DNA of 64,000 nucleotides from an uncultured bacterium. Lineage in GTDB: Bacteria > Babelota > Babeliae > Babelales > RVW-14. The notes below the pieces were generated by a model. That model did not search any database. It was not told the DNA's origin and saw only the letters and a list, made by a program, of their open reading frames with translations. The stretch spans positions 192,001-256,000 of the forward strand of contig CAVXAT010000001.1 in the NCBI GenBank assembly GCA_963759805.1. Direction: 5' to 3'. Position numbers and translations under genes: made by a program. Of the stretch, positions 44,498 to 64,000 are shown in pieces (position 1 is the first letter of the stretch; each line of letters opens with the position of its first letter).

Positions 44498-47400
44498 ATG
44501 GAATTAGGATTCAAAAGGATATTAGCTGTTGTAGCAGTTATTGGCGTGTTCTTGCTTAATCCAATGTTTGCAACAGTTTCATTTGATAATATCAATTCGC
44601 AATTTATATTAAAAAACAGCAATTCTGAGATTAGATTAAATCCTGCTGCGGTTCTTGGATGGCAAGATAGCTCTATAATTGCCAACGTTGTAAACGCCGG
44701 CTTGGGCGATTATAATCTACTATTGGATGCCAAAAATATAGGCAACTCAACATATCCAAGTTCAGGGAACATCATAAACTATCCCGGAGTGCCGAACACT
44801 TTGATAGGTTCGAATTGGAACATACAGCCAAACATAATTATTCACGTCACTGCAAATGCCGTTCTTGATGGCAATGGAAACACAATAAATCTTGGTGCCA
44901 ATTCTGAAATTTTTGTTGATGACACTGTGACACTTACGTTGCGAAATGTTGTAATTGATAATACCGAAAATTTTGCCGGCAATCCGCCAATAAAACTTGC
45001 AACGAGCAGGAGCAAGGTTGTTTTTGATAATGCAAGATTAAATTTATCAAATGATTTCTACTTTGATCGTGGTCAGATATTTTTTTACAACGATGTTAAC
45101 GTCACGGGTACTAGTGCAATTATTTATCGCTCTGCAAGTCCAAGTTATATAATGTCGGGTGCAAATCTTAAATTTAATTCTGGGACGACATTGGCCTTCG
45201 CGCCGTCTACAACGGGTGCATCGGGAATTTTGGCAAAAGATTTATTTGTAATGGGTGATGCGACATCAAAGTTGACATTGGATGGAGCATCATTTAAAAC
45301 AACACTGACAGGAATGCGTCTGACCAAAGGACAGTTACTGCTTGGTAATAAAATTACAATGACAAGTGTGGCATCATTACGAGCTACGGGTACAAGTTCC
45401 GTATTTACGCTTCCATCTTACAATGGTGCGCCACTAGCAAGAGCATTCAGTGAAATTGACACGTTGCAGTGGAGCCCTGATGGAAGAATGTTAGCCGCAG
45501 CGGGACATACAAGAGAAAAACCACAGGCCCAGAACGTTGCGGTCTATCTCTTTTCCGGATCAACCACAACAACATTGGCCGCGACTGCCTTTTCCGTGAC
45601 GTCATCAGGTGTGTCGTGGAGTCCTGATGGGCAGTATTTGGCGGCGGGTGGAAAGGTATTCGTACCTACTTCGTTGGGACTTAGTGTATCAACATCGAAT
45701 GTACAAGTTTATTCTATTGTGAATAATACCCTTTCGACAGTTGCGCAGACAAATCTTGGAACAACTCTTGCATCATACGCAGGGCCGGTGAGTTGGAGCC
45801 CTGGCGGTCACTACCTGGCTGTTGGTGGGAACATGCGAGGTTTGACGATCTACCAGTTCAATGGAACTACTCTGAATCAGATTTCAACTGCAACTTCAGG
45901 TTCTGCAAATACAAATGAAGTATTAGGAATTGCTTGGCATCCAAGTGGGAAATATGTTGCGGTTGCTACAAATTTTGTACAGGGAGGGTCAGGTGCAGCC
46001 GGTAGCGTAACCATTTATCAAGTTAATAACGGGGTACTTGTTGCATCTGCATTTGCCGCCAGAAGTTATGGAATCGCTGGATCGGGTGGTTATGCAACAA
46101 GTGTTTCATGGAGTCCGGATGGGAATTTCTTGGCAGCGACGGGAGCAACCTCAGTCTCTGCGGGTGTAATAAATGTTTATACATTTACTCCAGCAACATC
46201 TGCCCTTACAGTAGCTGCAACTTCACCATTTGGAACAATCGCAAGGGTTGTAAAATGGAGTCCTGATGGGAGATTCCTACTGGTAGGAGGAAATAACGGT
46301 ACGGCAGATTTGACATTGTATCTGGAATTTACAGGTTCCGGGTTAGGGATCATACAAACGATCTCTTACGGGAAATCAATTTATACTAGCGACCTGAGTC
46401 CAAACGGTTTATACCTTGCACTTGGTGGTGTCAGTCCTACCGCGGTAGGACCGACCGACGGAGAACTTGAGATAGGCATAGTTGCCTATGGTCAAGAGAC
46501 AACTCTTCAAGCTGTATCAAATTCAATTGTATTTGGTAACTCAGGCTCAGGCTCAAGTTATGATTTGAATTTACAATTACTTTCAGGCGCAAACGTTTCA
46601 GTCGACGGAATAGTTAACTATGATAACGTAAATTCAACATCGATATTTAGTAATAACAATGCAAGTTTTGTGTTAAAAAATAGCAATTCTGAGATTAAAC
46701 TCAGGCCTGCAACGGTTCTTGGCTGGCAGGATAGTTCGATAATTGCCAACGTTGTAAACGCCGGCTTGGGCGATTATAATCTGTTGTTGGATGCCAAAAA
46801 TATAGGCAACTCAACATATCTAAGTTCAGGTAACATAATAAACTATCCCGGAGTGCCGAACACTTTGATAGGTTCGAACTGGAACATACAGCAAAACACA
46901 ATTATTCACGTTACTGCAAATGCCGTTCTTGATGGCAATAACAACACAATAAATCTTGGCGCAAACTCGCAAATTTTTGTTGATGACACTGTAACTTTAA
47001 CGTTGCGAAACGTTATGATCAGCAACAACCAAAATTTTGCAAATAATCCGCCAATAAAACTTGCGACAAGCAGAAGTAAACTTGTTCTTGATAATGCAAG
47101 ATTGAACTTTGTAAATGATTTTTACTTCAACCAGGGCGAACTGTTTTGTTACAACGATGTTAACTTCACGGGAACAAGTTCATTTATTTATCGTTCAACT
47201 GTTCCAAGTCAAATCATGTCTGGAGCAAATCTTAAATTTAATCCAAAGACTACATTCTACTTTGAACCTGCTACAAGCGGTGTGACAGGACTTTTGGCAA
47301 AAGACCTTTTAATGATGGGTGATGCGACATCTAAGTTGACATTGGATGGAGCAACGCTTAAAACAACGCTAACTGGCATGCGTCTGACTCAAGGACAGTT

Positions 47401-50400
47401 GCTGCTTAGTAATAATGTGACTATGACAAGTGCAACGTCATTCAGGGCGACGGGCACAAATGCCGTTCTTACACTTGGTACTGGTATCGCAAACGCATTC
47501 AGCGAAATTGACAATTTGCAGTGGAGTCCTGACGGGAGAAAGTTGGCGGTAGCGGGGCAGACGCGAGCAGTAACATACTCAGCGGGCGTATCTGGTAACC
47601 TTGCAGTGTACCTCTTTTCCGGAACGACAACGTCAACTCTGAGCACTGTAGATTTCTCGGTGACGGCATCTGGGGTTTCATGGAGTCCTGACGGACAGTA
47701 TCTGGCGGCGGGTGGCAAGGTGTATCTGCCGGCATCTTTAGGTCTTTCGGTATCAACATCGAACCTGCAAATTTACTCCGCTGCTAATAACTTTTCTTCA
47801 CCGGTAGTGCAGACAAATCTTGGAACAACCAGAGCCTCATACACTGGACCTGTGAGCTGGAGCCCTGATGGGCGCTATCTGGCAGTTGGTGGCAACATGC
47901 GAAACTTGACGATATACCAGTTTAACGGCAGTGCTTTGAGTCAAGTTTCAGCAACCACTGGCGTATCAGAGGTTCTAGGTATTTCTTGGCATCCAAGCGG
48001 AAAATATATAGCGATTGCTACAAACTCCGCAACGGCAAATAGTATAGCCGTTTATTCTGTTGCTAACGGAGTGCTTGGTGGGTCACCATTATCAACAAAA
48101 AACTATACGGCGGGGTATGGAACAAGTGTTGCATGGAGTCCTGATGGAAACTACTTGGCAACAACAGGGCTGGTTTCGAGTGTCGGTACAATGTATGTTT
48201 ATTCAGTTAATTCAGCGGCTACCACATTGACACAAATTTCAGTTTTATCGTTTGGGACAAGTGCAAGAACGGTAAAGTGGAGCTCGGATGGAAGATTTTT
48301 ACTTGTGGGTGGAAATGATACCGCCTCAAGAGATCTGATACTCTATATAGAATTTCCGTCATTGACTTTCATACAAACAATATCTTTTGGTACATACATT
48401 TATAGTACTGATGTTCATCCAAATGGTCTTTATCTGGCAGCCGGTGGTTATACTACTGCCCCTTCGACACCTTATTATACACTTAATATTGCAAGTATTG
48501 CCTATGGTCAAGAGACGACGCCTCAGGCGATCTCCAATTCGATTGTCTTTGGTAACTCGGCTGCCGGATCAGTATCAGATTTAAGCGTTCAGCTACTTTC
48601 CGGTGCAAACGTCTCAGTCGATGGAATATTGAATTATGATAACACCCTTGGCTACACAATGTTTAGCAACGACAATGCAAGGTTTGTTCTGAAAAACAGC
48701 GCTTCCGAAATTCGCATGACTCCAAACACTGTGGTTGGCTGGAAAAACAGCTCATTAATTGATTCGGTTGCTGGCATTGGGCAGGGTGATTATAACCTAC
48801 TAGCCGACGATGCTAATTTTGATAAAATTTTGCCATTTCAAGGCATCCCAAATACATTGACAAGTCTTGGATGGAACGTTCCTGCCAACACCATAATACA
48901 CATCGACAGCAACACTGTGATTAACGGTAATGGCAATACAATTAACCTTGGCAATAATTCAGAGTTATTTGTTGATGACAATGTGACCTTGACTTTAAGA
49001 AACGTGATTATTAGCAACGCCGAAAATTTTGTAGGAAATCCTGCAATCAAACTTGCATCGAACAGAAGCCAGCTTGTGCTTGATAACTCAACATTAAATA
49101 TTGTTGGTGACTTTTATTTTGATCGCGGTCAACTTTTTGCTTACAACGATGTAAATATAAACGGTACGAGTGCATTTATTTATCGTTCTACAAAACCAAG
49201 TTATATAAAATCAGGTGCAAATCTTAAGTTTAATCCTGGTACGACATTTTCATTTGCGCCATCTACCACCGGTATGCTTGGATTGTTGGCAAAAGATCTA
49301 TTGATAATGAGCGATGCAAGTTCGAAAATTACATTGAATGGAGCAACTCTTAAAACAACATATACCGGATTGCGTTTAACTACAGGGCAGTTGTTACTTG
49401 ATAATAAAGTTTCAATGACGAGCGCTGCTGTTTTGGGGATAACAAGTTTTTACTCCAACATTGTATCATCGCCTAGTTATAATGGCTTCATTTGGTCAGT
49501 TGCATGGAGCCCTGATGGTCGTTATGTTGCATGTGGCGGAGGGACTACAGACAAAGTTAATGTGTATCAGTTTACAGGAACAAGTTTAACGCAAGTAGCA
49601 CAATCTGCATCATACGGCAACACCATTTATTCAGTTGCATGGAGTCCTGATGGTCGTTATGTTGCATGTGGTGGAGCGAATACCAACACGGTTAATGTGT
49701 ATCAGTTTACAGGAACGAGTTTAACACAAGTAGCACAATCTGCCTCATATGTTAATACAATTATATCAGTTGCATGGAGTCCTGATGGTCGTTATGTTGC
49801 ATGTGGAGGAGGGACTAACACGGTTAATGTGTATCAGTTTACAGGAACAAATTTAACGCAAGTTGCACAATCTGCTTCATACGGCGGTAGCATTAGTTCA
49901 GTTGCATGGAGTCCTGATGGTCGTTATGTTGCATGTGGAGGAGGGACTAACACGGTTAATGTGTATCAGTTTACAGGAACAAATTTAACGCAAGTAGCAC
50001 AATCTGCTTCATACGGCGGTATAATTCAGTCAGTTGCATGGAGTCTTGATGGTCGTTATGTTGCATGTGGTGGAGGGACTACCAACAAGATTAACGTGTA
50101 TCAGTTTACAGGAACGAGTTTAACGCAAGTTGCACAATCTGCTTCATACGGCGGTGGCATTATTTCAGTTGCATGGAGTCTTGATGGTCGTTATGTTGCA
50201 TGTGGTGGAGGGACTACCAACAAGATTAACGTGTATCAGTTTACAGGAACGAGTTTAACGCAAGTTGCACAATCTGTTACATACAACGGGCAAATTGAAT
50301 CACTTGCATGGAGTCTTGATGGTCGTTATGTTGCATGTGGTGGACAGAATACCAACACAGTTAATGTGTATCAGCCGCATTATCAAGCAATAGCCACTCC

Positions 50401-53400
50401 CCAAGCAATTTCAAATTCAATCGTGTTTGGTAACTCAGGCTCAGGATCAAGTTATGACTTGAATGTTCAACTACTTTCAGGGGCAAACGTCTCAATCGAC
50501 GGGATTCTAAATTATGACAACACCCAGGGCTACACAATGTTCAGTAATAACAATGCAAGCTTTGTATTAAAAAACAGCAATTCTGAAATTCATATGACCC
50601 CAAACACTGTTGTCGGATGGCAAGACAGCTCTATAATTTCTAACGTCTCAAACGCCGGCTTAGGTGATTACAATTTAATCTCCGATGTGAGTCCAAAAAA
50701 TGCCCAAATTCCAACTAATCTAATAAATTACTCCGGTGTGCCAAATACTTTGGTAGGTTCGAACTGGAACATCCCTGCAAACACAATCGTTCACGTCAGT
50801 AACAATGCAGTGCTTGATGGTAACGGTAACACAATAAGTATTGGTGCCAATTCTGAAATCTTTGTAGATGACACAATAACGTTGACATTGCGTAACGTTG
50901 TAATCAGTAATAATCAGAATTTTGCAAATAATCCGCCGATAGAGCTTGCGACAAGCAGAAGCAAACTTGTTCTTGATAATGCAAGACTGAACTTTGTAAA
51001 TGATTTTTACTTCAACCAGGGCGAACTGTTTTGTTACAACGATGTTAACTTTACGGGAACAAGTTCATTTATTTATCGTTCAACTGTTCCAAGTCAAATC
51101 ATGTCAGGAGCAAATCTTAAATTTAATCCAAAAACTACCTTTTACTTTGAACCTTCCACGAGCGGTACGACCGGACTTTTGGCAAAAGATCTTTTAATGA
51201 TGGGTGATGCGACAAGCAAGATTACACTGGACGGAGCATCGTTGAAAACAACGCTGACCGGCATGCGTCTGACTCAAGGACAGTTGCTGCTTGGTAACAA
51301 TGTTACGATGACAAGTGCAACATCATTCAGGGCCACGGGCACAAATGCCATTCTTACCCTTGGTACCGGTATCGCCAATGCATTCAGAGAAATTGATAAG
51401 TTACAGTGGAGTCCTGACGGAAGAAAACTGGCGGTGGCCGGTCAGACGAGGGAAAAATTACTAGTACAACCAAGTAGCTTATCCGTGTATCTCTTCTCCG
51501 GAACAACGACGTCAACGCTAGCAACTGTCAGCTTTTCAGTGACGGCATCAAGTGTTTCATGGAGTCCTGATGGGCAGTATCTGGCGGCGGGTGGAAAAGT
51601 AAGCATACCGTTATCTTTAACGGTATCAACATCGAACCTACAAATTTACTCTGCTGCTAATAACTTTTCTTCACCGGTAGTGCAGACAAATCTTGGAACG
51701 ACTCGAGCCTCATACACAGGTCCGGTAAACTGGAGTCCTGATGGGCGCTATCTGGCAGTTGGTGGTAATGGGCATGGATTGACGATTTACCAGTTCAATG
51801 GAACTACCCTGAATCAAGTTTCGGCTACGTCTTCAACAGGCCCAGAAGTTTTAGGAATCTCTTGGCATCCAAGTGGAAAATATATTGCTGTTGCAACAAA
51901 TTTCACGGCAGGTGCAGCTGGTGGCATAACGATTTATCCTATTAATAATGGGGTATTGACCACATCTGGTTTACCTTCATCATTTACAAGAACTTATGGA
52001 TCCGCTGGATCCGGTTGTGGAACAAGTGTTTCATGGAGTCCTGATGGAAACTACTTGGCAACAACCGGTCAGGTTACAGGCTTGGCTGGTGGTCCTGGCG
52101 CGATGTATGTTTATGCATTTAATTTGACAGCCCAGTGGACGATGCAAGTCTCAGCGTTACCGTTTGGAACAAGTGCAAGAACGATAAAATGGAGCTCGGA
52201 TGGAAGATTTTTACTTGTGGGTGGTAACGATACTGCATCAAGAGATCTGGTACTCTACATAGAATTTCCGTCATTAACTTTAATAAATATAGTATCTTTT
52301 GGTACGTATATTTATAGCACTGATGTACATCCAAATGGTCTTTATCTGGCAGTCGGTGGTTATACGACCAACCCTTCGAAACCTTATTACACACTTAATA
52401 TTGCAAGTATTGCCTATGGCCAAGAGACGACGCCTCAGGCGATCTCTAACTCAATTGTCTTTGGTAACTCGGCGGCAGGATCAGCATCAGATTTAAGCGT
52501 TCAACTACTTTCCGGTGCAAACGTCTCAGTCGACGGAATAATTAATTATGACAACACCATGGGTTACACAATGTTCAGTAATAACAATGCAAGCTTTGTA
52601 TTAAAAAACAGCAACTCTGAAATTCGCATGCATCCTAATACCGTTATTGGATGGAATGATAGATCCCTTATCAAGAATACAGTTGGAGGTGGGCTTGGTG
52701 ATTATAATCTGGTCTCGTATGCGCCTACTCTGAATAATAATATTGTGAATTATGCAGCAGCTCCTGCCGAACTTGTTTATGATAATAGTAATGCAGTAGT
52801 GGGACTGACGGTAACTGCAAGAACAAATAGTAATGCATTAGTTTATCTGAGAAGAACTACCAGCAATTCAGAAGCATATCTAAGCAGAATGAGCAGCAAC
52901 TCTATTGCATATCTGAGTAGGACGAGTAGTAATTCAATAGCTTATCTGAGTAGAATGACAAGTAATTCGATAGCATGGCTAAGTGGCGTGGAGCGAGGGA
53001 ACAGTAACTTGCTCAGAGTAACGAGTAATGGATTAGTTTATTTGCGAAGGACGACCAGTAATTCAGAAGCATATTTAAGCAGAATGAGCAGTAACTCTAT
53101 TGCATATTTGAGTAGAACGACAAGTAATTCAATAGCTTATCTGAGTAGAATGACAAGTAACTCAATAGCATGGCTCAGCGGTGTGGAGCGAGGGAACAGT
53201 AACTTTCTCAGAATAACAAGTAATGCATTAGTTTATCTAAACAGAACAACAAGTAATTCGATGGCATATTTAAGCAGAATGAGCAGCAACTCGATAGCAT
53301 ATTTAAGTAGGACGAGTAGTAATTCAATAGCTTATCTGAGTAGAATGACAAGTAACTCGATAGCATGGCTAAGTGGCGTGGAGCGAGGGAACAGTAACTT

Positions 53401-56152
53401 TCTCAGAGTAACAAGTAATGCATTAGTTTATCTGAGAAGAACTACCAGTAATTCAGAAGCATATTTAAGCAGAATGAGTAGCAACTCGATAGCATATCTG
53501 AGTAGGACGAGTAGTAATTCAATAGCTTATCTGAGTAGAATGACAAGTAACTCAATAGCATGGCTCAGTGGTGTGGAGCGAGGGAATAGCAACTTGCTCA
53601 GAGTAACGAGTAATGGATTAGTTTATTTGCGAAGGACGACCAGTAATTCAGAAGCATATTTAAGCAGAATGAGCAGTAACTCTATTGCATATTTGAGTAG
53701 GACGAGTAGTAATTCAATAGCTTATCTGAGTAGAATGACAAGTAACTCAATAGCATGGCTCAGCGGTGTGGAGCGAGGAAACAGTAACTTGCTCAGAGTA
53801 ACAAGCAATGCATTAGTTTATCTAAACAGAACAACAAGCAATTCCATGGCATATCTAAGCAGAATGAGCAGCAACTCTATTGCATATTTAAGTAGGACGA
53901 GTAGTAATTCAATAGCTTATTTGAGTAGAATGACAAGTAACTCAATAGCATGGCTGAGTGGAGTCGAACGAGGTAACAGTAACTTGCTCAGAGTAACAAG
54001 CAATGCATTAGTTTATTTACGAAGAACGACAAGTAATTCAGAAGCATATTTAAGCAGAATGAGCAGCAACTCGATAGCATATTTAAGTAGGACGAGTAGT
54101 AATTCAATAGCTTATCTGAGTAGAATGACAAGTAACTCGGTAGCATGGCTCAGCACAAGAGTCAGAACAGATAGTAACGCTTTCTTATATGGCATCAAGA
54201 ATAGCAGTAACTGGATTAACCAATGGGCAACTACTGTTAAGCAGACAAGTAACACTGCAAACTATTTGAGTATGAGAGTTAGAACCGACAGTAATGCGTT
54301 GCTGGCTTTGAATCGTACAACATCGAATGCACTTCTGTTTAGCAATCGAAACAACAGCAACGCAATAATCAAGCTTTGCGTAATCGAGAGAACAAGCTCA
54401 AATGCATTTGCTTACGGAATTAAAAACAACAGTAACTGGATTAACCAGTGGGCAACTACCGTTAAACAGACAAGTAACTCCATGAAATATTGGGCGCCTG
54501 TTGTTAAAGCTAACAGTAACTGGATTAACCAATGGGCAACTACTGTTAAGCAGACAAGTAACACTGCAAACTATTTGAGTATGAGAGTTAGAACCGACAG
54601 TAATGCGTTGCTGGCTTTGAATCGTACAACATCGAATGCACTTCTGTTTAGCAATCGAAACAACTCGAATGCAATCATTAAACTTGGTGTGACTGAGAGA
54701 ACGAACTCCAACGCGTTTGCTTACGGAATCAAGAACAACAGTAACGCTATTATAAAACTGGGTCAGGCAGGAGGCGTTCTGTCTGTTAATAATAGTAATG
54801 CTATCATCAAGCTCGATAGTACCTCCAGAACTAACAGTAATGCATTTGCGTATGAAATTAAGAACAACAGTAACGCTATTATAAAACTGGGTCAGGCAGG
54901 AGGCGCTCTGTCTGTTAATAATAGTAATGCTATCGTCAAGCTCGATAGTACCTCCAGAACTAACAGTAATGCATTTGCGTACGAAATTAAGAACAACAGT
55001 AACGCAATCATAAAACTCAACCAAGGTGGTTCAGTTGCACTGGCAGTCCAAAACAGCAATGCAATCGTATCTTGGATTAAAGGCACAAGTAATGCCGTCA
55101 TTAAGTTAAGCGGTACGGCTCCTGCAGTTCTACCAATTAATAACAGTAATGCAATTATAAAACTTAACGCATCAATGCAAACCATAGATCACGGCCCAAG
55201 CGCCATTCAAATTAGCACCCCTACATACACTATGGCATATGACATTTATCTAAGCGCAGATCATACATTAAATATCGCAAACAGTTGTGTGTTTGATGGC
55301 AACGGACACATGATAAATTTTGCAAAAGATAGTCCAAATATTTTCACAACAGGGTTAGGTAGCACAGTAGTTCTTAACAATGTTGTTCTAAAGAACTTTG
55401 ATGACTCATCAGTGCAACTGGGAGTCGGTGCTACATTAACATTTGGTGACGGTTGCAGAATTGATCTTGCAGATGAACAGGCAATGTCAATGCCATGGAT
55501 ATTCAGTGGGAATTCTGCAATCAATGGTTATGGCAACCCTCTTGATCTTGGTACGCAAAGCATCCAAATTATGCAAAGTGGAGCTTTGACAGTAGAAAAC
55601 ATTATCCTGAGTGGTCTTGTAGGTAACAATGTACGATGCTTAGGTCCAAACGCAAATATTACATTCAAAAATGACACATTACAAACTACAGGCGATTACA
55701 GCTTTACGGCTGGGGCTCTGATATTCCAAGATGAAGTTGAAATCAAGTCTAATAATGAGCTTTCACTTTCAAATGCATTTATTTACGCGTCTGATCAAAC
55801 ATCAACAATAAACAGTTACTCAAGATTGAAATTGGATTATGGCGTGCTTTTCTATTATGGACCAAGTGTTGTGCGTAGAGATTTAATTGCGATGCAAGAT
55901 GTTTCTTCAGAGTTATATTTGAATGGATGCGCATTAGCAACATCATCAGTCGGAATGCGTTTAACAAAAGGAACATTGACCGTTGACAGCGACAACATTT
56001 TAATCGACGTTTTATTTGGAACACCAACAAGTCTTGCTCAAAGTATCTGTTTTGGTGATGGAGTTGCAGCTGATGACTTGGCAATAAACATACTCCCAGG
56101 CGGGCAATTGAATGTAACCAACGGAATACTTGATTATCAGAACGTGAATTAA
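44498..56152 (+). CDS. giant (3884 aa) secreted repetitive protein: 4x(solenoid+propeller), SN-rich stalk, C-terminal solenoid; putative adhesin
   Basis: Signal peptide; four modules each closed by SNSIVFGNS...YDN; SN repeats ~52780-55170. Confidence 0.85.
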   Translation: MELGFKRILAVVAVIGVFLLNPMFATVSFDNINSQFILKNSNSEIRLNPAAVLGWQDSSIIANVVNAGLGDYNLLLDAKNIGNSTYPSSGNIINYPGVPNTLIGSNWNIQPNIIIHVTANAVLDGNGNTINLGANSEIFVDDTVTLTLRNVVIDNTENFAGNPPIKLATSRSKVVFDNARLNLSNDFYFDRGQIFFYNDVNVTGTSAIIYRSASPSYIMSGANLKFNSGTTLAFAPSTTGASGILAKDLFVMGDATSKLTLDGASFKTTLTGMRLTKGQLLLGNKITMTSVASLRATGTSSVFTLPSYNGAPLARAFSEIDTLQWSPDGRMLAAAGHTREKPQAQNVAVYLFSGSTTTTLAATAFSVTSSGVSWSPDGQYLAAGGKVFVPTSLGLSVSTSNVQVYSIVNNTLSTVAQTNLGTTLASYAGPVSWSPGGHYLAVGGNMRGLTIYQFNGTTLNQISTATSGSANTNEVLGIAWHPSGKYVAVATNFVQGGSGAAGSVTIYQVNNGVLVASAFAARSYGIAGSGGYATSVSWSPDGNFLAATGATSVSAGVINVYTFTPATSALTVAATSPFGTIARVVKWSPDGRFLLVGGNNGTADLTLYLEFTGSGLGIIQTISYGKSIYTSDLSPNGLYLALGGVSPTAVGPTDGELEIGIVAYGQETTLQAVSNSIVFGNSGSGSSYDLNLQLLSGANVSVDGIVNYDNVNSTSIFSNNNASFVLKNSNSEIKLRPATVLGWQDSSIIANVVNAGLGDYNLLLDAKNIGNSTYLSSGNIINYPGVPNTLIGSNWNIQQNTIIHVTANAVLDGNNNTINLGANSQIFVDDTVTLTLRNVMISNNQNFANNPPIKLATSRSKLVLDNARLNFVNDFYFNQGELFCYNDVNFTGTSSFIYRSTVPSQIMSGANLKFNPKTTFYFEPATSGVTGLLAKDLLMMGDATSKLTLDGATLKTTLTGMRLTQGQLLLSNNVTMTSATSFRATGTNAVLTLGTGIANAFSEIDNLQWSPDGRKLAVAGQTRAVTYSAGVSGNLAVYLFSGTTTSTLSTVDFSVTASGVSWSPDGQYLAAGGKVYLPASLGLSVSTSNLQIYSAANNFSSPVVQTNLGTTRASYTGPVSWSPDGRYLAVGGNMRNLTIYQFNGSALSQVSATTGVSEVLGISWHPSGKYIAIATNSATANSIAVYSVANGVLGGSPLSTKNYTAGYGTSVAWSPDGNYLATTGLVSSVGTMYVYSVNSAATTLTQISVLSFGTSARTVKWSSDGRFLLVGGNDTASRDLILYIEFPSLTFIQTISFGTYIYSTDVHPNGLYLAAGGYTTAPSTPYYTLNIASIAYGQETTPQAISNSIVFGNSAAGSVSDLSVQLLSGANVSVDGILNYDNTLGYTMFSNDNARFVLKNSASEIRMTPNTVVGWKNSSLIDSVAGIGQGDYNLLADDANFDKILPFQGIPNTLTSLGWNVPANTIIHIDSNTVINGNGNTINLGNNSELFVDDNVTLTLRNVIISNAENFVGNPAIKLASNRSQLVLDNSTLNIVGDFYFDRGQLFAYNDVNINGTSAFIYRSTKPSYIKSGANLKFNPGTTFSFAPSTTGMLGLLAKDLLIMSDASSKITLNGATLKTTYTGLRLTTGQLLLDNKVSMTSAAVLGITSFYSNIVSSPSYNGFIWSVAWSPDGRYVACGGGTTDKVNVYQFTGTSLTQVAQSASYGNTIYSVAWSPDGRYVACGGANTNTVNVYQFTGTSLTQVAQSASYVNTIISVAWSPDGRYVACGGGTNTVNVYQFTGTNLTQVAQSASYGGSISSVAWSPDGRYVACGGGTNTVNVYQFTGTNLTQVAQSASYGGIIQSVAWSLDGRYVACGGGTTNKINVYQFTGTSLTQVAQSASYGGGIISVAWSLDGRYVACGGGTTNKINVYQFTGTSLTQVAQSVTYNGQIESLAWSLDGRYVACGGQNTNTVNVYQPHYQAIATPQAISNSIVFGNSGSGSSYDLNVQLLSGANVSIDGILNYDNTQGYTMFSNNNASFVLKNSNSEIHMTPNTVVGWQDSSIISNVSNAGLGDYNLISDVSPKNAQIPTNLINYSGVPNTLVGSNWNIPANTIVHVSNNAVLDGNGNTISIGANSEIFVDDTITLTLRNVVISNNQNFANNPPIELATSRSKLVLDNARLNFVNDFYFNQGELFCYNDVNFTGTSSFIYRSTVPSQIMSGANLKFNPKTTFYFEPSTSGTTGLLAKDLLMMGDATSKITLDGASLKTTLTGMRLTQGQLLLGNNVTMTSATSFRATGTNAILTLGTGIANAFREIDKLQWSPDGRKLAVAGQTREKLLVQPSSLSVYLFSGTTTSTLATVSFSVTASSVSWSPDGQYLAAGGKVSIPLSLTVSTSNLQIYSAANNFSSPVVQTNLGTTRASYTGPVNWSPDGRYLAVGGNGHGLTIYQFNGTTLNQVSATSSTGPEVLGISWHPSGKYIAVATNFTAGAAGGITIYPINNGVLTTSGLPSSFTRTYGSAGSGCGTSVSWSPDGNYLATTGQVTGLAGGPGAMYVYAFNLTAQWTMQVSALPFGTSARTIKWSSDGRFLLVGGNDTASRDLVLYIEFPSLTLINIVSFGTYIYSTDVHPNGLYLAVGGYTTNPSKPYYTLNIASIAYGQETTPQAISNSIVFGNSAAGSASDLSVQLLSGANVSVDGIINYDNTMGYTMFSNNNASFVLKNSNSEIRMHPNTVIGWNDRSLIKNTVGGGLGDYNLVSYAPTLNNNIVNYAAAPAELVYDNSNAVVGLTVTARTNSNALVYLRRTTSNSEAYLSRMSSNSIAYLSRTSSNSIAYLSRMTSNSIAWLSGVERGNSNLLRVTSNGLVYLRRTTSNSEAYLSRMSSNSIAYLSRTTSNSIAYLSRMTSNSIAWLSGVERGNSNFLRITSNALVYLNRTTSNSMAYLSRMSSNSIAYLSRTSSNSIAYLSRMTSNSIAWLSGVERGNSNFLRVTSNALVYLRRTTSNSEAYLSRMSSNSIAYLSRTSSNSIAYLSRMTSNSIAWLSGVERGNSNLLRVTSNGLVYLRRTTSNSEAYLSRMSSNSIAYLSRTSSNSIAYLSRMTSNSIAWLSGVERGNSNLLRVTSNALVYLNRTTSNSMAYLSRMSSNSIAYLSRTSSNSIAYLSRMTSNSIAWLSGVERGNSNLLRVTSNALVYLRRTTSNSEAYLSRMSSNSIAYLSRTSSNSIAYLSRMTSNSVAWLSTRVRTDSNAFLYGIKNSSNWINQWATTVKQTSNTANYLSMRVRTDSNALLALNRTTSNALLFSNRNNSNAIIKLCVIERTSSNAFAYGIKNNSNWINQWATTVKQTSNSMKYWAPVVKANSNWINQWATTVKQTSNTANYLSMRVRTDSNALLALNRTTSNALLFSNRNNSNAIIKLGVTERTNSNAFAYGIKNNSNAIIKLGQAGGVLSVNNSNAIIKLDSTSRTNSNAFAYEIKNNSNAIIKLGQAGGALSVNNSNAIVKLDSTSRTNSNAFAYEIKNNSNAIIKLNQGGSVALAVQNSNAIVSWIKGTSNAVIKLSGTAPAVLPINNSNAIIKLNASMQTIDHGPSAIQISTPTYTMAYDIYLSADHTLNIANSCVFDGNGHMINFAKDSPNIFTTGLGSTVVLNNVVLKNFDDSSVQLGVGATLTFGDGCRIDLADEQAMSMPWIFSGNSAINGYGNPLDLGTQSIQIMQSGALTVENIILSGLVGNNVRCLGPNANITFKNDTLQTTGDYSFTAGALIFQDEVEIKSNNELSLSNAFIYASDQTSTINSYSRLKLDYGVLFYYGPSVVRRDLIAMQDVSSELYLNGCALATSSVGMRLTKGTLTVDSDNILIDVLFGTPTSLAQSICFGDGVAADDLAINILPGGQLNVTNGILDYQNVN
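49470..50375 (+). repeat. seven near-identical 120-123 bp WD40 blade repeats
   Basis: SVAWS(P/L)DGRYVACGG...NVYQFTGT(S/N)LTQVAQSASY. Confidence 0.92.
52841..54150 (+). repeat. 195-bp (65-aa) tandem repeat, six full units plus one partial, built mostly from 33-bp subunits
   Basis: Units start at 52841, 53036, 53231, 53426, 53621, 53816, 54011. Confidence 0.92.
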
Positions 56153-57576: not shown

Positions 57577-60363
57577 TTAACTCAACTTAACCAAGTTAAC
57601 AATTTCCTGTTCAAGGGTTGGCAGCTTACCTTGTCCGCCGCCTTGAATAAACTCTTCGTTTCCGCCGCTGCGAATATTAAATTTATTTTTCAATAACTCA
57701 GATAACGCTTTCAAGCTTATTTTATTTTCAGATTTTTTTGATTGATACGCAATGACTGAAAAATTGTCTGAATTACTGGTTTTATTCAAGATAACGTATA
57801 ATCCGGGTTTGTGTTTTTCAAAATCAGTACAGATTGATTTCATCTCTTGGTTAGGCAAGTCTTCAATTTCAAGATAAACAAATGGAACTTTGCCGATAAC
57901 TGTAATTTTATTTTGCCATTCAATAATCTGAGATTTCATTAACTGCTTGCGAAGCTGTTTGATCTGGCTTTGAGATTCAAGATAACGTTCTTGCAGTTTA
58001 TTGACAGCATCATAAACCTCTTCGAATTTTGTTTTAAAATCTTCGCTGAGTTTTTTAACAGTTGTGAAGGACTGCTGAAAAAGTTTGACAGCCTCATGTC
58101 CTGTTACACCGGTAATTCTTCGCACACCGGTTGAAAGGGCGGTTTCGCTTACAATCTTAAAACAACCTATGATTCCGGTGCTTGGGGCATGTACGCCTCC
58201 ACAGAGTTCCGTGGAAAATCCGGGAACCTGGACGACACGAACTTTTTCAGGGTTGTATTTTTCACCGAAGAAAGCCATTGCTCCGGCAGTCTTTGCCTCT
58301 TCCAGTGTTGAGTAGAAAATCTTTGTCTGAATATCTTCTTGAATTTTTTGGTTTACAAGATCTTCAACGGCTTGGATCTGCTCGTGCGTTAATGCTTGCT
58401 GATGTGAAAAATCGAATCTGAATGATTCTGCGCAGACGGATGAACCCGCTTGCTTTATGCCGCTGCCTAAAATTTGGATCAGGGCAGCCTGAAGCAGGTG
58501 TGTGGCGGTGTGATTTTTTACTGTGTTGATTCTTGAGAAGTAATCGACAATGCAGTGTGCGCTGTCGCCGACTTTGATGTCGGAAATTATCTGTGACTCG
58601 CATCCTTCGACAGGCTCCCAGGCTTCGCCCTTAGTGGCTACGCCGGGCACGGCAGGACGATCCTTCGACAGGCTCAGGATGAGCGGCCTGCTTGCCTGGG
58701 CGCCGTAGCTATCCAAGCGAAGGCGGCTCGAACCATCACGCAGTGACGCGCCTGGTTCAGTAGTTAGTGAAACTTTTACGGCAATTGCAGGGTGATTTAC
58801 ATTTCCAAGTTTTTGCAAAGCGAGTACGGGCAGGGCGTGTTCTTTTATTGTCACCCAGCCATTATCTCCAATTTGACCTCCGGACTCAACATAAAATGGG
58901 GATTTATCAGTAATAATCCACGCTGTCTGATCACTGTTTTTCTGTACGAATATTATTTTTGCTTTTGCTTCAAGATCTGTGTACCCAACGAATTCAGTCG
59001 ATGTTCCAGCAGGGATAGCTCCCTCATTAAGCTTTTCATTTTCACCATCATGCTTTTTACCGGATTGCTCACGTTGTTTGTCCATCTCTTTTTCAAAAGC
59101 CTCCATATCCAACGTGAGGTTCTGTTCATGTGCCAAGACTTTTGTTAATTCCGGTGGGAACCCGTAGGTGTCATAAAGTTTAAAAATTTGTTGTCCTGAA
59201 AGAAATAGCTGTCCGTCTTTTTTATTATCTTCAACGTATTTTGTAAAAATATTTTGACCTTGTACTAAGTTGATTGCAAATTTTTCAACTTCGCTATCAA
59301 GTGTTGTAGCGATGAGTTTAGTACCGGCTCCCAACTCGGGATAGACGGGGGACATCTGTTTTATAAATCTTTTTGAGAGTTTAGATAAAAGCTGTTTGTC
59401 GTCAGAAAGTTTTTGTGCAAACATAGCAGCACGACGAATAATTTTGCGTAGAACATAACCGCGACCTTCATTTGATGGCGTGCAGCCGTCTGCAATTAAA
59501 AAGGATGAAGAGCGGACATGGTCGCATAAAACATTGAATGCTGCTTTAATTTTTTCAGGGCTTTGGTTGTAACTGAAATTTGTTATTTTTTCTATCTCAT
59601 CGATGATATCGGCAAAAAGGTCTGTTTCAAATACTGACTCTTTACCCTGAACGACGCAGCATAGACGCTCAAGTCCCATTCCGGTGTCCACACCTGTTTT
59701 GGTCAGCGGCTTTAATTCACCATTTGATTGACGGTCATACTGCATGAACACAAGGTTCCAGATCTCCATAAATCTGTCGCAATCACATCCCGGGGCACAA
59801 TCTTTACTGCCGCAACCGCGTTCTATCCCTTTGTCGATGTATATTTCGGTGCATGGTCCGCATGGACCGGTGTCTCCCATCTGCCAGAAATTATCCTTTT
59901 CGCCAAGTCGTCGGATGCGTGTTGCAGGAAGCCCGACAACTTTATTCCAAATTTCAAAAGCTTGGTCGTCTGTTGTAAAGACGGTGGCATAAAGCTTATC
60001 TTTGGGTAATCCTATCTCTTTTGTTAAGAGTTCCCAGGCAAAGCCGATTGCCTCCTTTTTGAAGTAGTCGCCGAATGAAAAATTTCCGAGCATCTCAAAA
60101 AATGTTAGGTGTCTGGCCGTAAATCCTACATTTTCTAAATCGTTGTGTTTTCCGCCTGCTCGTACACACTTTTGAGAAGATGTAGCTCGGGTATAAGATC
60201 TTTTTTCTTTACCCAAAAAAATATCTTTAAATTGGTTCATGCCTGCGTTGGCAAAAAGAAGTGTTGGATCCTGTGCCGGAATAAGTGATGAACTGGCTAC
60301 AACGGTGTGACCATTTTTTGCAAAAAAATCCAAGTACTTTTTGCGTAATTCGAATGATTTCAT
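57577..60363 (-). CDS. alaS: alanine-tRNA ligase with an in-frame repeat-derived insertion of about 52-55 aa
   Basis: DPTLLFANAGMNQFK, FFEMLGNFSFGDYFK, DTGMGLER, NHTATHLL, ELCGGVH. Confidence 0.96.
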   Translation of the reverse strand: MKSFELRKKYLDFFAKNGHTVVASSSLIPAQDPTLLFANAGMNQFKDIFLGKEKRSYTRATSSQKCVRAGGKHNDLENVGFTARHLTFFEMLGNFSFGDYFKKEAIGFAWELLTKEIGLPKDKLYATVFTTDDQAFEIWNKVVGLPATRIRRLGEKDNFWQMGDTGPCGPCTEIYIDKGIERGCGSKDCAPGCDCDRFMEIWNLVFMQYDRQSNGELKPLTKTGVDTGMGLERLCCVVQGKESVFETDLFADIIDEIEKITNFSYNQSPEKIKAAFNVLCDHVRSSSFLIADGCTPSNEGRGYVLRKIIRRAAMFAQKLSDDKQLLSKLSKRFIKQMSPVYPELGAGTKLIATTLDSEVEKFAINLVQGQNIFTKYVEDNKKDGQLFLSGQQIFKLYDTYGFPPELTKVLAHEQNLTLDMEAFEKEMDKQREQSGKKHDGENEKLNEGAIPAGTSTEFVGYTDLEAKAKIIFVQKNSDQTAWIITDKSPFYVESGGQIGDNGWVTIKEHALPVLALQKLGNVNHPAIAVKVSLTTEPGASLRDGSSRLRLDSYGAQASRPLILSLSKDRPAVPGVATKGEAWEPVEGCESQIISDIKVGDSAHCIVDYFSRINTVKNHTATHLLQAALIQILGSGIKQAGSSVCAESFRFDFSHQQALTHEQIQAVEDLVNQKIQEDIQTKIFYSTLEEAKTAGAMAFFGEKYNPEKVRVVQVPGFSTELCGGVHAPSTGIIGCFKIVSETALSTGVRRITGVTGHEAVKLFQQSFTTVKKLSEDFKTKFEEVYDAVNKLQERYLESQSQIKQLRKQLMKSQIIEWQNKITVIGKVPFVYLEIEDLPNQEMKSICTDFEKHKPGLYVILNKTSNSDNFSVIAYQSKKSENKISLKALSELLKNKFNIRSGGNEEFIQGGGQGKLPTLEQEIVNLVKLS
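58596..58760. repeat. composite palindromic element inside alaS
   Basis: Near-identical to 63743-63908; contains ATCCTTCGACAGGCTC twice, 58 bp apart. Confidence 0.9.
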
Positions 60364-60905: not shown

Positions 60906-60934
60906 TTGCAAGAGTTGGATTTTGTTTGTATAAT
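60906..60934 (+). promoter_or_regulatory. sigma70 promoter for tRNA-Ile/tRNA-Ala
   Basis: TTGCAA-17 nt-TATAAT. Confidence 0.65.
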
Positions 60935-60975
60935 TCTGTGTAATCTATGAAATTTAAGTGATTTTTATGGTTTTT

Positions 60976-61049
60976 GGGCCTGTAGCTCAGGTGGCTAGAG
61001 CATCCCGCTGATAACGGGAAGGTCAGTCGTTCAAGTCGACTCAGGCCCA
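60976..61049 (+). tRNA. tRNA-Ile (GAT)
   Basis: GGGCCTG/CAGGCCC acceptor, TCCCG-CTGATAA-CGGGA; CCA not encoded. Confidence 0.95.
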
Positions 61050-61071
61050 CTCTTCTAAAATTGAAATTCTT

Positions 61072-61144
61072 GGGGGTATAGCTCAGTTGGTAGAGCATCC
61101 GCTTTGCAAGCGGAGGGTCTGCGGTTCGAATCCGCATACCTCCA
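61072..61144 (+). tRNA. tRNA-Ala (TGC)
   Basis: G3:U70 pair, TCCGC-TTTGCAA-GCGGA. Confidence 0.95.
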
Positions 61145-61148
61145 CTCC

Positions 61149-61220
61149 TCTTCGCCCTTGAAGGGCTACGATGAGCACGGCCAGTCTTCGCTGCTTCGCA
61201 GCTTCCGCCGTCGCATAAAG
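61149..61220. repeat. family B repeat 3' of tRNA-Ala, left part (interrupted by IS110)
   Basis: CTTCGCCCTTGAAGGGCTACG...CCGCCGTCGCATAAAG. Confidence 0.75.
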
Positions 61221-61290
61221 CTTGTATGTTAGAAATCTATTAAATAAATAAGAATTTTATTAACTTTATTCCAGAGTTATTTTTTTTAAT

Positions 61291-61441
61291 ATCGATTGTT
61301 CAAGGAAGTTGATAGATCTCGTGCTCGAGCTGATCATAAGGGATCGTGCCATAGTTTGAGACTATCAACTTACATTAAACAACCTCGAACAATCACTTGA
61401 GACGTATTGGGTACGATCTCGCATGTTTACAAGCCAGAGGT
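61291..61441 (+). ncRNA. predicted IS110 bridge RNA (target-binding and donor-binding loops)
   Basis: Two stem/internal-loop/hairpin units whose loops match the target and the circle junction (see findings); 5' end uncertain. Confidence 0.8.
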
Positions 61442-61448
61442 AATCGTT

Positions 61449-62384
61449 ATGGTATCAAATATATATGTAGGCGTCGATATTTCTAAAAACAGCTTAGATA
61501 TTTGCATTTATCCTGAAAAAACACTCTTAAAAATAGACAACACAGAAGCTGCGATACAGGGTTTCATTAAAAAAATAGCCCAGCAAGATATTGCACAAAT
61601 AGCATGTGAAGCAACAGGAGGATATGAAAAGCTGCTTGCAACGCTGCTAAAAAAGAATGGCTACAACCTTTGGATTATTGATCCGAGGCGAATAAGGGGT
61701 TTTATTGTTTCAACTGGATGCAAAAGCAAAAACGATAAAATTGATGCACGAAAAATTGCTGAATTTTGTTCTAAAAATACGCGTGGCTATTCGACGGTTG
61801 AAAAAACTGAGAATCAAGCCAAATTGCAAGCTCTCGTTAATCGTAAAAACGATCTTACCAAGTTTTTGGCTGCGGAAAAAACAAGATTAAAGCAACCTTC
61901 ACATGCAATGAGTTTACCGAGCATTAAACGTTTGATTAAAATTTTTACCGCAGAAATCAAGACGGTAGATACGCAAATATCTGGCTTACTCAAAAACGAT
62001 AGCGAACTTGGTCAAAAAGCTGAGATTTTAGAATCTATACCTGGAATTGGAATTGCCTCTGCAGCTCTTCTTTTATCACATGTTCCAGAGCTTGGAACAA
62101 TAAGTAACAATAAAATATCGGCTCTTGTTGGTGTGTGTCCATATGACAATGAAAGCGGTAAATTCAAGGGTAAGAGAAGAATTCGGGGAGGACGGATGAC
62201 CCCGAGAAATCAGATTTACATGTGCGCATTAACAACCATTAAACATAACCTAATTCTTAAAGCCTTTTATGATCGCTTGATAAAAAATCAAAAACCGTTC
62301 AAAGTGGCCATAGTTGCCGTTATGCGCAAACTAATTATTCTTGCCAATTCGCTGTTAAAAAGAGGCGAGTTATGTAAAGTTTAA
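61449..62384 (+). CDS. IS110-family DEDD recombinase/transposase
   Basis: VGVDISK, CEATGGY, KNDKIDA, SIPGIG, catalytic-serine motif ESG, KVAIVAVMRKL. Confidence 0.95.
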   Translation: MVSNIYVGVDISKNSLDICIYPEKTLLKIDNTEAAIQGFIKKIAQQDIAQIACEATGGYEKLLATLLKKNGYNLWIIDPRRIRGFIVSTGCKSKNDKIDARKIAEFCSKNTRGYSTVEKTENQAKLQALVNRKNDLTKFLAAEKTRLKQPSHAMSLPSIKRLIKIFTAEIKTVDTQISGLLKNDSELGQKAEILESIPGIGIASAALLLSHVPELGTISNNKISALVGVCPYDNESGKFKGKRRIRGGRMTPRNQIYMCALTTIKHNLILKAFYDRLIKNQKPFKVAIVAVMRKLIILANSLLKRGELCKV

Positions 62385-62430
62385 TTTTCGAAAATTTTTA
62401 AAAAAAGTTTTGACTTTTAACACAATCACT

Positions 62431-62512
62431 ATGGCGGACAAGTCGCCGGCACAGCAGGATGAGCGCTCATGGTGAGCCTGTCGAACCATGGCGAACAAGT
62501 CGTCTGGCAAGC
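62431..62512. repeat. right part of the interrupted repeat
   Basis: ATGGCGGACAAG...CGCTCATGGTGAGCCTGTCGAACCATGG. Confidence 0.75.
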
Positions 62513-63273: not shown

Positions 63274-63308
63274 TATGTTACTGAAATTGATATTCTAAAA
63301 AAATTAGT

Positions 63309-63381
63309 GGGGATGTAGCTCAGTTGGTAGAGCATCTGCCTCGCACGTAGAAGGTCAGCGGTTCGAATCCGCTCATCTCCA
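63309..63381 (+). tRNA. tRNA-Ala (CGC)
   Basis: G3:U70 pair, TCTGC-CTCGCAC-GTAGA. Confidence 0.95.
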
Positions 63382-63382
63382 C

Positions 63383-63473
63383 CCTTCGCTTTCGCCCTAA
63401 AGGGCTCCTAGCTTCCAGCCTTCGTTAAAACTACGGCGGGCACGGCAAGACGGGTCGCAAGCCAGTCTTCGCT
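63383..63473. repeat. family B repeat 3' of tRNA-Ala(CGC)
   Basis: Matches the elements after tRNA-Lys and tRNA-Ala(TGC). Confidence 0.8.
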
Positions 63474-63487
63474 CAATTCGTGCCACT

Positions 63488-64000
63488 CTAATTTTTTGGG
63501 GCTACTTTTTTCTGCAACTCTTCCCATTCTTCGTACAGTTTTTCGATTTGGGATTTCACTTCATTGATTCGTTGGGATGTTCTGTCAAAATCCGGTGTTC
63601 CAAAATCCAGAAATTCAAAGCTTTGATTAAGGGTTACGAGTTGTTTTTCAAGCGTCTCAATTTTGCGTTCAAGACTAGCTATCTGTTTTTTAGATTCGTA
63701 CCATTCTTTGCTGCTAATTGTTGGATTAGTATCTCTTCTGAAACTCGCATCCTTCGACAGGCTCCCAGGCTTCGCCCTTCGTGGCTACGCCGGGCACCGC
63801 AGGACGATCCTTCGACAGGCTCAGGATGAGCGGCTTGTTTGCCTGGGCGCCGAAGCCTTGGCGAAGGCGGCTCGAACCATCACCCCTTGGTGACGCGCCG
63901 GGTTTCAGAAGCAGTTCGGTGTGTTTTTTGTGATACAGGAAAGATTCGTAATTTCCCGGGTAGTTAATGACTCCTTGTGGCATTAGTTCTAAAACTCTGC
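63488..64000 (-). CDS. 3' end of an ABC-F ATPase, frameshifted at a repeat insertion
   Basis: RVLEL...YPGNYESFL frame stops at 63726; coiled-coil tail (LERKIETLEKQ...LYEEWEEL) lies in another frame ending at 63488. Confidence 0.75.
63743..63908. repeat. composite palindromic element inside the ABC-F gene
   Basis: Near-identical to the alaS insert; enclosed by CTTCTGAAAC/GTTTCAGAAG inverted repeat. Confidence 0.9.

Follow-up and report, generated by a model that had tools for sequence, protein, structure and literature searches.

The window, a 64,000-nt stretch of DNA from a Babelota (Dependentiae) genome, carries an IS110-group element of 1,210 bp at 61221-62430 with a CT core at both ends, and we put the probability at about 0.88 that this insertion sequence moves by IS621-type bridge recombination, with the conserved 3' arm of a palindromic host repeat as its main address (positions are those of the window and of its + strand unless stated otherwise). 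We assign it to the IS621-type bridge RNA systems because its guides covary with the flanking DNA and its RNA stems covary as well, the handshake bases track their partners, the joined ends form a promoter motif and the catalytic residues are in place. A first-pass annotation of the window had proposed an IS621-type layout with a CT core; the two-loop covariation, the identical CT ends, the handshake tracking and the junction promoter bear this out. The mechanism has been known since 2024 and the system itself is ordinary. What it offers is a clean natural data set, some 20 related elements built on one scaffold and one donor, with many targets, which displays re-targeting onto different host repeats as well as handshake tracking, and which bears on two questions: right-arm-only insertion in nature, and the regulation of a transcript serving as guide and mRNA alike.

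The insertion sequence, its ends and its age

The 1.5-Mb host genome (37% GC) holds the element in three copies, two intact and one frameshifted. The window copy (copy A) has flanks unlike those of the other two. Copy C is identical to it and lies at the extreme start of contig C2, with its right flank beyond the assembly; in copy B, on contig C1, a run of G is short by one base, which truncates the protein at 249 aa. All three start and end at the same CT in differing flanks, which fixes the ends 61221 and 62430 independently of the annotation that had first proposed them, and every sequence which that annotation quoted is present where it was placed. The search for further copies and empty sites that it had suggested also recovered the reconstructed empty site of copy A, uninterrupted, at 2 other loci, and across the three copies and the empty sites the CT core stands at both ends without other target duplication. 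The left end measures 226 nt and the right end 44 nt, and the bottom-strand guide precedes the top-strand guide, the pattern of the IS110 group as opposed to IS1111.

The insertion is recent, since the locus is free of the element in 3/3 congeners; in one of these, a repeat belonging to that family stands empty after the same tRNA. Among the sequencing runs listed as matches none is an RNA run, and the best DNA run contains 0.23 of the sequence words. Pieces of the element and of its relatives are present in 4 sequencing runs, which cover neither element end and show no circle junction. Taken together, the sequence comparisons identify a real, recently mobile insertion sequence. As to the earlier judgement that it is probably active, recent mobility is supported by the identity of copies and by the absence from congeners, but activity itself is a prediction. 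Transposase-like ORFs, recognised by eye, lie near copies B and C in the same assembly (G000 C1:1415-2251 and C2:2301-4354).

The recombinase and its relatives

The gene at 61449-62384 encodes a putative bridge recombinase of 311 aa, which matches PF01548 (78.4 bits), PF02371 (56.7 bits) and NF033542 (194.5, against a cut-off of 140). Its PDB matches are only two, ISCro4 (9t56), the best, at E 1.5e-34 and IS621 at E 7e-34. In alignments to both chains, D10, E54, D96, D99 and S236 fall on the catalytic residues of IS621, and all five are invariant in 48 relatives, in agreement with the earlier statement that the DEDD motif and the ESG serine are kept. An alternative start at TTG 61407 was rejected, as this codon falls within the donor loop and the proteins of relatives have a length of about 313 aa.

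The closest named relatives are 57-66% identical and carry labels that include Babeliales and Dependentiae, and some match was found in 34 of the 261 genomes of the phylum. An alignment-based scan for loci gave matches, a locus scan with the single protein none. For comparison of the RNA we parsed 21 elements at 55% identity or more, namely this one, 9 from genomes of the phylum and 11 from the best 80 metagenome loci, which together represent 31 insertion sites and exclude fragments and the 30-44% relatives.

A predicted two-loop bridge RNA that covaries with its surroundings

A single scaffold with variable guides recurs across the parsed elements. The predicted bridge RNA spans 61237-61441, its start placed by the spacing from the junction promoter and its body by covarying structure. 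The target-binding loop (61306-61371) has an outer stem, 61306-20/61357-71, and an inner hairpin, 61332-45, and holds a left target guide at 61323-61331, a 7-nt right target guide at 61348-61354 that is the exact complement of core and right target, and a handshake guide at 61355-61356. The donor-binding loop (61382-61441), given by the consensus fold, has a closing stem, 61382-86/61437-41, and an inner hairpin, 61399-61420, and holds the left donor guide at 61389-61397, identical to 62422-62430, and the right donor guide at 61423-61433, of which 61429-33 pairs with the core and three further bases; its distal pair is either contiguous (61428) or formed across a bulge (61423-24), the latter being the register of IS621 in the available sections of PMC11208158. 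A second handshake guide follows at 61434-61435. Ahead of the target loop a hairpin is predicted at 61261-79, within a leader that is poorly conserved (0.59).

Free folding of the left end returns the outer stem of the target loop and both inner hairpins. The consensus fold of 20 relatives returns the full two-loop structure, but in the unconstrained fold of this element the closing stem first drawn for loop 2 loses to a competing helix. Among 20 RNAs, 12 of the 31 stem pairs show two-sided changes with 96% of cells paired, a result reached in 0/500 shuffles, whereas slid controls gave 1-3 such pairs.

The guides change together with the DNA that they are proposed to read, as the first-pass annotation had asked to see. 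With this element excluded, the left guide matches its flank at 4.61 of 7 positions in 17 relatives with a flank (2.56 when shuffled) and the right guide at 4.26 of 5 in 18 relatives (1.97 when shuffled); neither value is reached in 20,000 permutations, although the permutation p-values overstate the case since the relatives are kin, and the left guide was given two registers, equally in the null. The first base of the donor-loop handshake guide complements target position 7 in 18 of 19 relatives, against a shuffled mean of 13.0 (p 0.0009), and that of the target-loop guide complements donor position 7 in 19 of 20 elements, two of them with a joint change.

Within this element, when the left end was dinucleotide-shuffled 20,000 times, the shuffles reproduced the donor guide 25 times, the right target guide 75 times and the right donor guide 1,431 times, and never all three exact matches together. 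By contrast, a left-guide match of at least 5/9 to the left target of copy A arose in 19,415 of the 20,000, so the partial match noted earlier at 61323-31 is present but, taken alone, lies at chance level for copy A. This last figure is what one would expect if the matches were coincidental or remnants and the protein alone picked the target, a reading that the joint covariation of guides and flanks over diverse targets, together with that of handshakes and stems, renders hardly credible.

All 15 matches of the RNA model, in 9 of 151 genomes, adjoin a recombinase gene, and none stands alone. Extra model matches in the element's own genome were rejected as antisense shadows, and an Rfam search of the window returned tRNAs only.

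Donor junction, promoter motif and proposed mechanism

Joining the two ends brings a -35 box in the right end (62410-62415) to within 17 nt of a -10 box in the left end (61225-61230), the latter overlapping the right donor arm at 61223-27. This sigma-70-like pair of motifs recurs in 20/20 elements at a spacing of 16-17 nt, 17 nt in 19 of them. At 62418-62428 lie one arm of a short inverted repeat (62418-21, partner 61228-31), perfect over 4 bp in 18/20 elements, and the left donor arm (62422-28). In 18/20 the left donor guide is an exact copy of its donor arm; in four relatives guide and arm have changed together, and in a 42% relative both donor arms have changed together. The first-pass annotation had also credited the element with a specificity of its own; on the donor side this does not hold, the pair of guide and junction being clade-wide, with the same donor junction in 16 of the 20 parsed elements.

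By analogy with IS621, excision would join the ends into a circle and so create the promoter, from which an RNA of about 200 nt and the recombinase transcript would be made. The donor loop would then read the joined ends and the target loop the host site, and composite DEDD/Ser active sites would swap strands at the CT, aided by the handshake pairs. The site so read would be the conserved 3' arm of the palindromic repeat, with the variable loop as left target. Copy A may in addition draw its RNA from the host: a promoter-like site with tRNA-Ile and tRNA-Ala lies just upstream (60906-61144), the + strand has no terminator-like site between the tRNA pair and the element, and read-through from that promoter may feed the RNA of this copy, for which the available sections of PMC13626964 hold a precedent.

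Target choice

All three copies lie inside a GC-rich hairpin repeat. The right guide matches 7/7 at the two copies whose right flank is visible, while the left guide matches 5, 3 and 1 of 7 non-core positions at copies C, A and B, with 2, 4 and 6 mismatches respectively. No perfect target exists among the 154,472 CT cores of the genome; the full right arm occurs at 148, of which 30 lie in the hairpin repeat whose 3' arm is that very sequence. The earlier description of the element as programmed against the host repeat therefore holds for the right guide, whereas the left guide fits only loosely. The gradient is general: over all parsed sites the match rate per position rises from 0.43 at the far left to 0.96 beside the core and stays at 0.67-0.96 in the right arm, and the nearest relatives share the right guide and differ in their left guides. 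These comparisons suggest that the address is mainly G-CT-ATGGC, read by the right guide and the handshake, and that the left guide tolerates heavy mismatch; such right-arm dominance is weakly sampled in this element, with three sites, one of them without a visible right flank.

The left guide is nonetheless not inert, since it covaries in the clade and fits a phylum-wide repeat variant at copy C, where its 5/7 match is extended by one G-T pair. The flank of copy C is identical to three empty copies of this best-fitting variant, which 56 of the 261 genomes of the phylum contain (0 for the control) and which only one non-repeat site outscores. It is possible, though we do not favour it, that targeting is canonical and two-armed, with the variant at copy C as the intended target and copies A and B as off-target or half-match events. 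That variant offers the left side 7 Watson-Crick pairs, one wobble and one mismatch, fits better than any other repeat copy of the genome, and is widespread in the phylum; left guides covary in relatives, and IS621 targets show 0-2 mismatches in the available sections of PMC11208160. Against this, two of the three insertions occupy sites that the left guide fits poorly, and three sites of best fit remain empty, and five relatives likewise have at most 3/7 left matches at their sole site.

A left guide tuned to the host's repeat family as a whole was rejected: ranked with all possible guides by fit to the 31 family sites of the host, it stands at the 49th-54th percentile, and its fit to the occupied sites (mean 3.0) does not stand out from that to the 31 (2.48, P 0.33). 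Nor did the 261 phylum genomes reveal a former host whose repeat would match exactly: they gave 3 single perfect-target matches, the two inspected lying outside the repeat.

The looseness could instead reflect damage, the element being a recent but crippled copy whose left guide, after a one-base slip that sets it apart from its nearest kin, is nonfunctional, with low present activity. The core-pairing CT does sit one base earlier in the nearest relatives, with a linker behind it, a one-base slip in the left guide separates related contigs in 3 of 4 sequencing runs, and one copy is frameshifted. Yet all three insertions share the same guide, so at least two occurred with it, and two relatives in the same register pair 5-7/7 at their own sites; we think damage quite improbable.

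Several loci of relatives merit individual mention. One (L038) lies outside the repeat, apparently in an integrase-like ORF as judged by eye, and with 1/7 left and 4/5 right matches is a natural right-half match. At another (L009) the right flank repeats about 25 bases from upstream of the element and the right guide fits poorly (2/5), possibly through rearrangement or a two-step insertion. The left end of a third (L004) carries a tandem 18-bp duplication, and four contigs of one genome (L049-L052) start with the right end of a close relative followed by different repeat variants, indicating at least 4 collapsed copies.

The host repeat and its hairpin

To the left of the insertion the host repeat forms a GC-rich mosaic (61145-61220), with a 5' arm at 61205-14 and a left target, 61214-20, that is mostly hairpin loop; to the right (62431-62510) it begins with the right target, 62431-35, which is the conserved 3' arm. 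We call it REP-like: in its copies CGTC lies inside the predicted stem and loop lengths vary, whereas CGTC-tagged REPs, in the available sections of PMC3733652, have an unpaired terminal CGTC, a stem of 8-9 bp and a loop of 4-5 nt.

The hairpin might itself be a second determinant of specificity, a dual match of sequence and structure as in ISPpu10. The upstream arm is present at all three sites, though at only 30 of the 148 right-arm sites, and at the two sites that can be folded it pairs with 6/7 and 5/7 positions of core and right target. Among noncoding sites with G at position 7, however, 21 of 29 are repeat copies anyway, so survival bias suffices, and the left target of ISPpu10 forms a stem where ours is mostly loop. 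In a comparison over 18 elements, upstream DNA pairs no better than shuffled flanks do (2.43 against 2.67), which led us to reject the hairpin as a rule of the clade and makes it an unlikely determinant for this element.

The repeat also occurs elsewhere in the window. About 53 codons of it stand in frame within alanyl-tRNA synthetase (58597-58755, - strand), and a near-identical insert lies at the 3' end of the ORF at ~63726-63998. Behind the tRNA-Ile/tRNA-Ala pair, two congeners have an ordinary hairpin and one a repeat copy.

A predicted leader helix that competes with the donor loop

The helix that displaces the donor-loop closing stem in the free fold pairs a conserved leader segment, 61294-61305, with 61383-61394, that is, with the 5' strand of the donor loop and the left donor guide. 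It covers the guide and breaks the stem, and is predicted to be 4.9 kcal/mol better than the closed donor loop. The five central bases of the segment are conserved at 0.96, against a leader mean of 0.59 and 0.84 in the best other window. In 16/20 elements the leader is predicted to pair more favourably with the donor guide than its shuffled versions do (a control segment in 0/20). With the native leader, the donor loop has a predicted closure under 0.2 in 16/20; once the leader is removed the value exceeds 0.8 in 18/20, and shuffled leaders give a mean of 0.51. Outside the clade the helix was found in 1 of 10 distant relatives, one further relative being unparsed, and in 0 of 3 plasmid IS110s, a fourth having no intact left end; IS621 is not among these.

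Sequence and folding place the likely Shine-Dalgarno of the recombinase at 61437-61440, inside the donor-loop closing stem, where in this element it is unpaired at 0.47 in the leader fold and at 0 in the closed loop. We tentatively propose a switch in which the nascent transcript would have an open donor loop and a partly free ribosome-binding site, the mRNA state, until recombinase binding or 5' trimming let the donor loop close, arming the guide and hiding the ribosome-binding site, a form of autorepression. The whole model, a clade-wide RNA switch of this kind together with right-dominated guides that colonise a left-hypervariable repeat family, seems to us rather doubtful. Consistent freeing of the ribosome-binding site was not found across 20 relatives, in which it is 0.03-0.88 unpaired. 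In the helix itself nine one-sided changes retain G-U pairs, with a compensatory change in only 1 of 8 pairs. The complementarity may instead be shared ancestry, or a second, inverted donor-like site that the protein recognises on DNA.

Literature searches found no switch between leader and donor guide. In the available sections of the respective accounts, leader structure controls translation in ISPpu9 (PMC8450116) and trimmed RNAs are reported for ISEc21 (PMC11187229) and CazIS110-1. If the model were true, the leader switch, with the long right and slack left guide, would leave genomes with natural insertions of the right-half-match kind. At a compact 311 aa and with a right guide of 7 nt in its native form, this orthologue is in any case a reasonable screening candidate, and should the leader helix be inhibitory, trimming leaders would matter in screens of orthologues.

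Comparison with known systems

The comparisons that follow refer to the available sections of the papers cited. IS621 (Durrant et al. 2024, PMC11208160; Hiraizumi et al. 2024, PMC11208158; PMC13626964) shares with the element PF01548 and PF02371, the DEDD/Ser residues, a long left end, the order of target loop before donor loop, the CT core, the handshake at position 7, the joined-end promoter and a REP-type target. The element differs in its distant protein and in its host, an intracellular Babelota lineage, in the pairing of a slack left guide with a natural right guide of 7 nt, as some orthologues are known to have, and in having no linker base between the left guide and the inner hairpin. 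Its leader complements the donor guide, whereas IS621, as read by eye from a printed oligo, has a self-contained 5' stem-loop. ISCro4/IS622 (Perry et al., bioRxiv 10.1101/2025.05.14.653916; PDB 9t56), the best PDB match, has the same architecture; it shares 88% identity with IS621 and works in human cells, whereas activity of the present element is a prediction.

With respect to target choice the closest parallel is ISPpu10 (bioRxiv 10.64898/2026.03.19.712850), which shares the REP target, the CT core, a stringent right guide and a left guide that is tolerant distally; its left target lies in a stem that boosts activity, in contrast to the loop and the lack of a clade-wide hairpin signal here. 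Work on half-matches in IS621 (bioRxiv 10.64898/2026.08.31.748434) indicates that one arm plus the core can suffice, which fits copy B (1/7 left, 5/5 right) and L038. With an IS621 guide of only 4 nt, events relying on the right target alone escaped scoring in vivo in that work, whereas such events appear to be fixed in genomes here.

The ISEc21 seekRNA (PMC11187229) likewise has an upstream noncoding region, natural re-targeting and processing of a long RNA. In ISPpu9 (PMC8450116) a 5' structure hides the ribosome-binding site under the control of antisense RNAs, unlike here, and the sections available for these two systems describe no helix between leader and donor guide. Literature searches found no paper on IS110 in Babelota, PMC12172432 makes no mention of IS110, and a search by motif and name in parts of the Durrant supplements, which hold gapped alignments, found no member of the clade.

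Other features of the window

The tRNA-Ile/tRNA-Ala pair upstream of copy A (60976-61144) has its own promoter-like site and is divergent from alaS, and the window has no rRNA match. At 44498-56152 an ORF of 3,884 aa combines recurring beta-propeller-like blocks with a long tandem repeat rich in SN. Beyond the element, near further copies of the host repeat, lies a tRNA-Ala with anticodon CGC (63308-63384), which is uncommon in bacteria.
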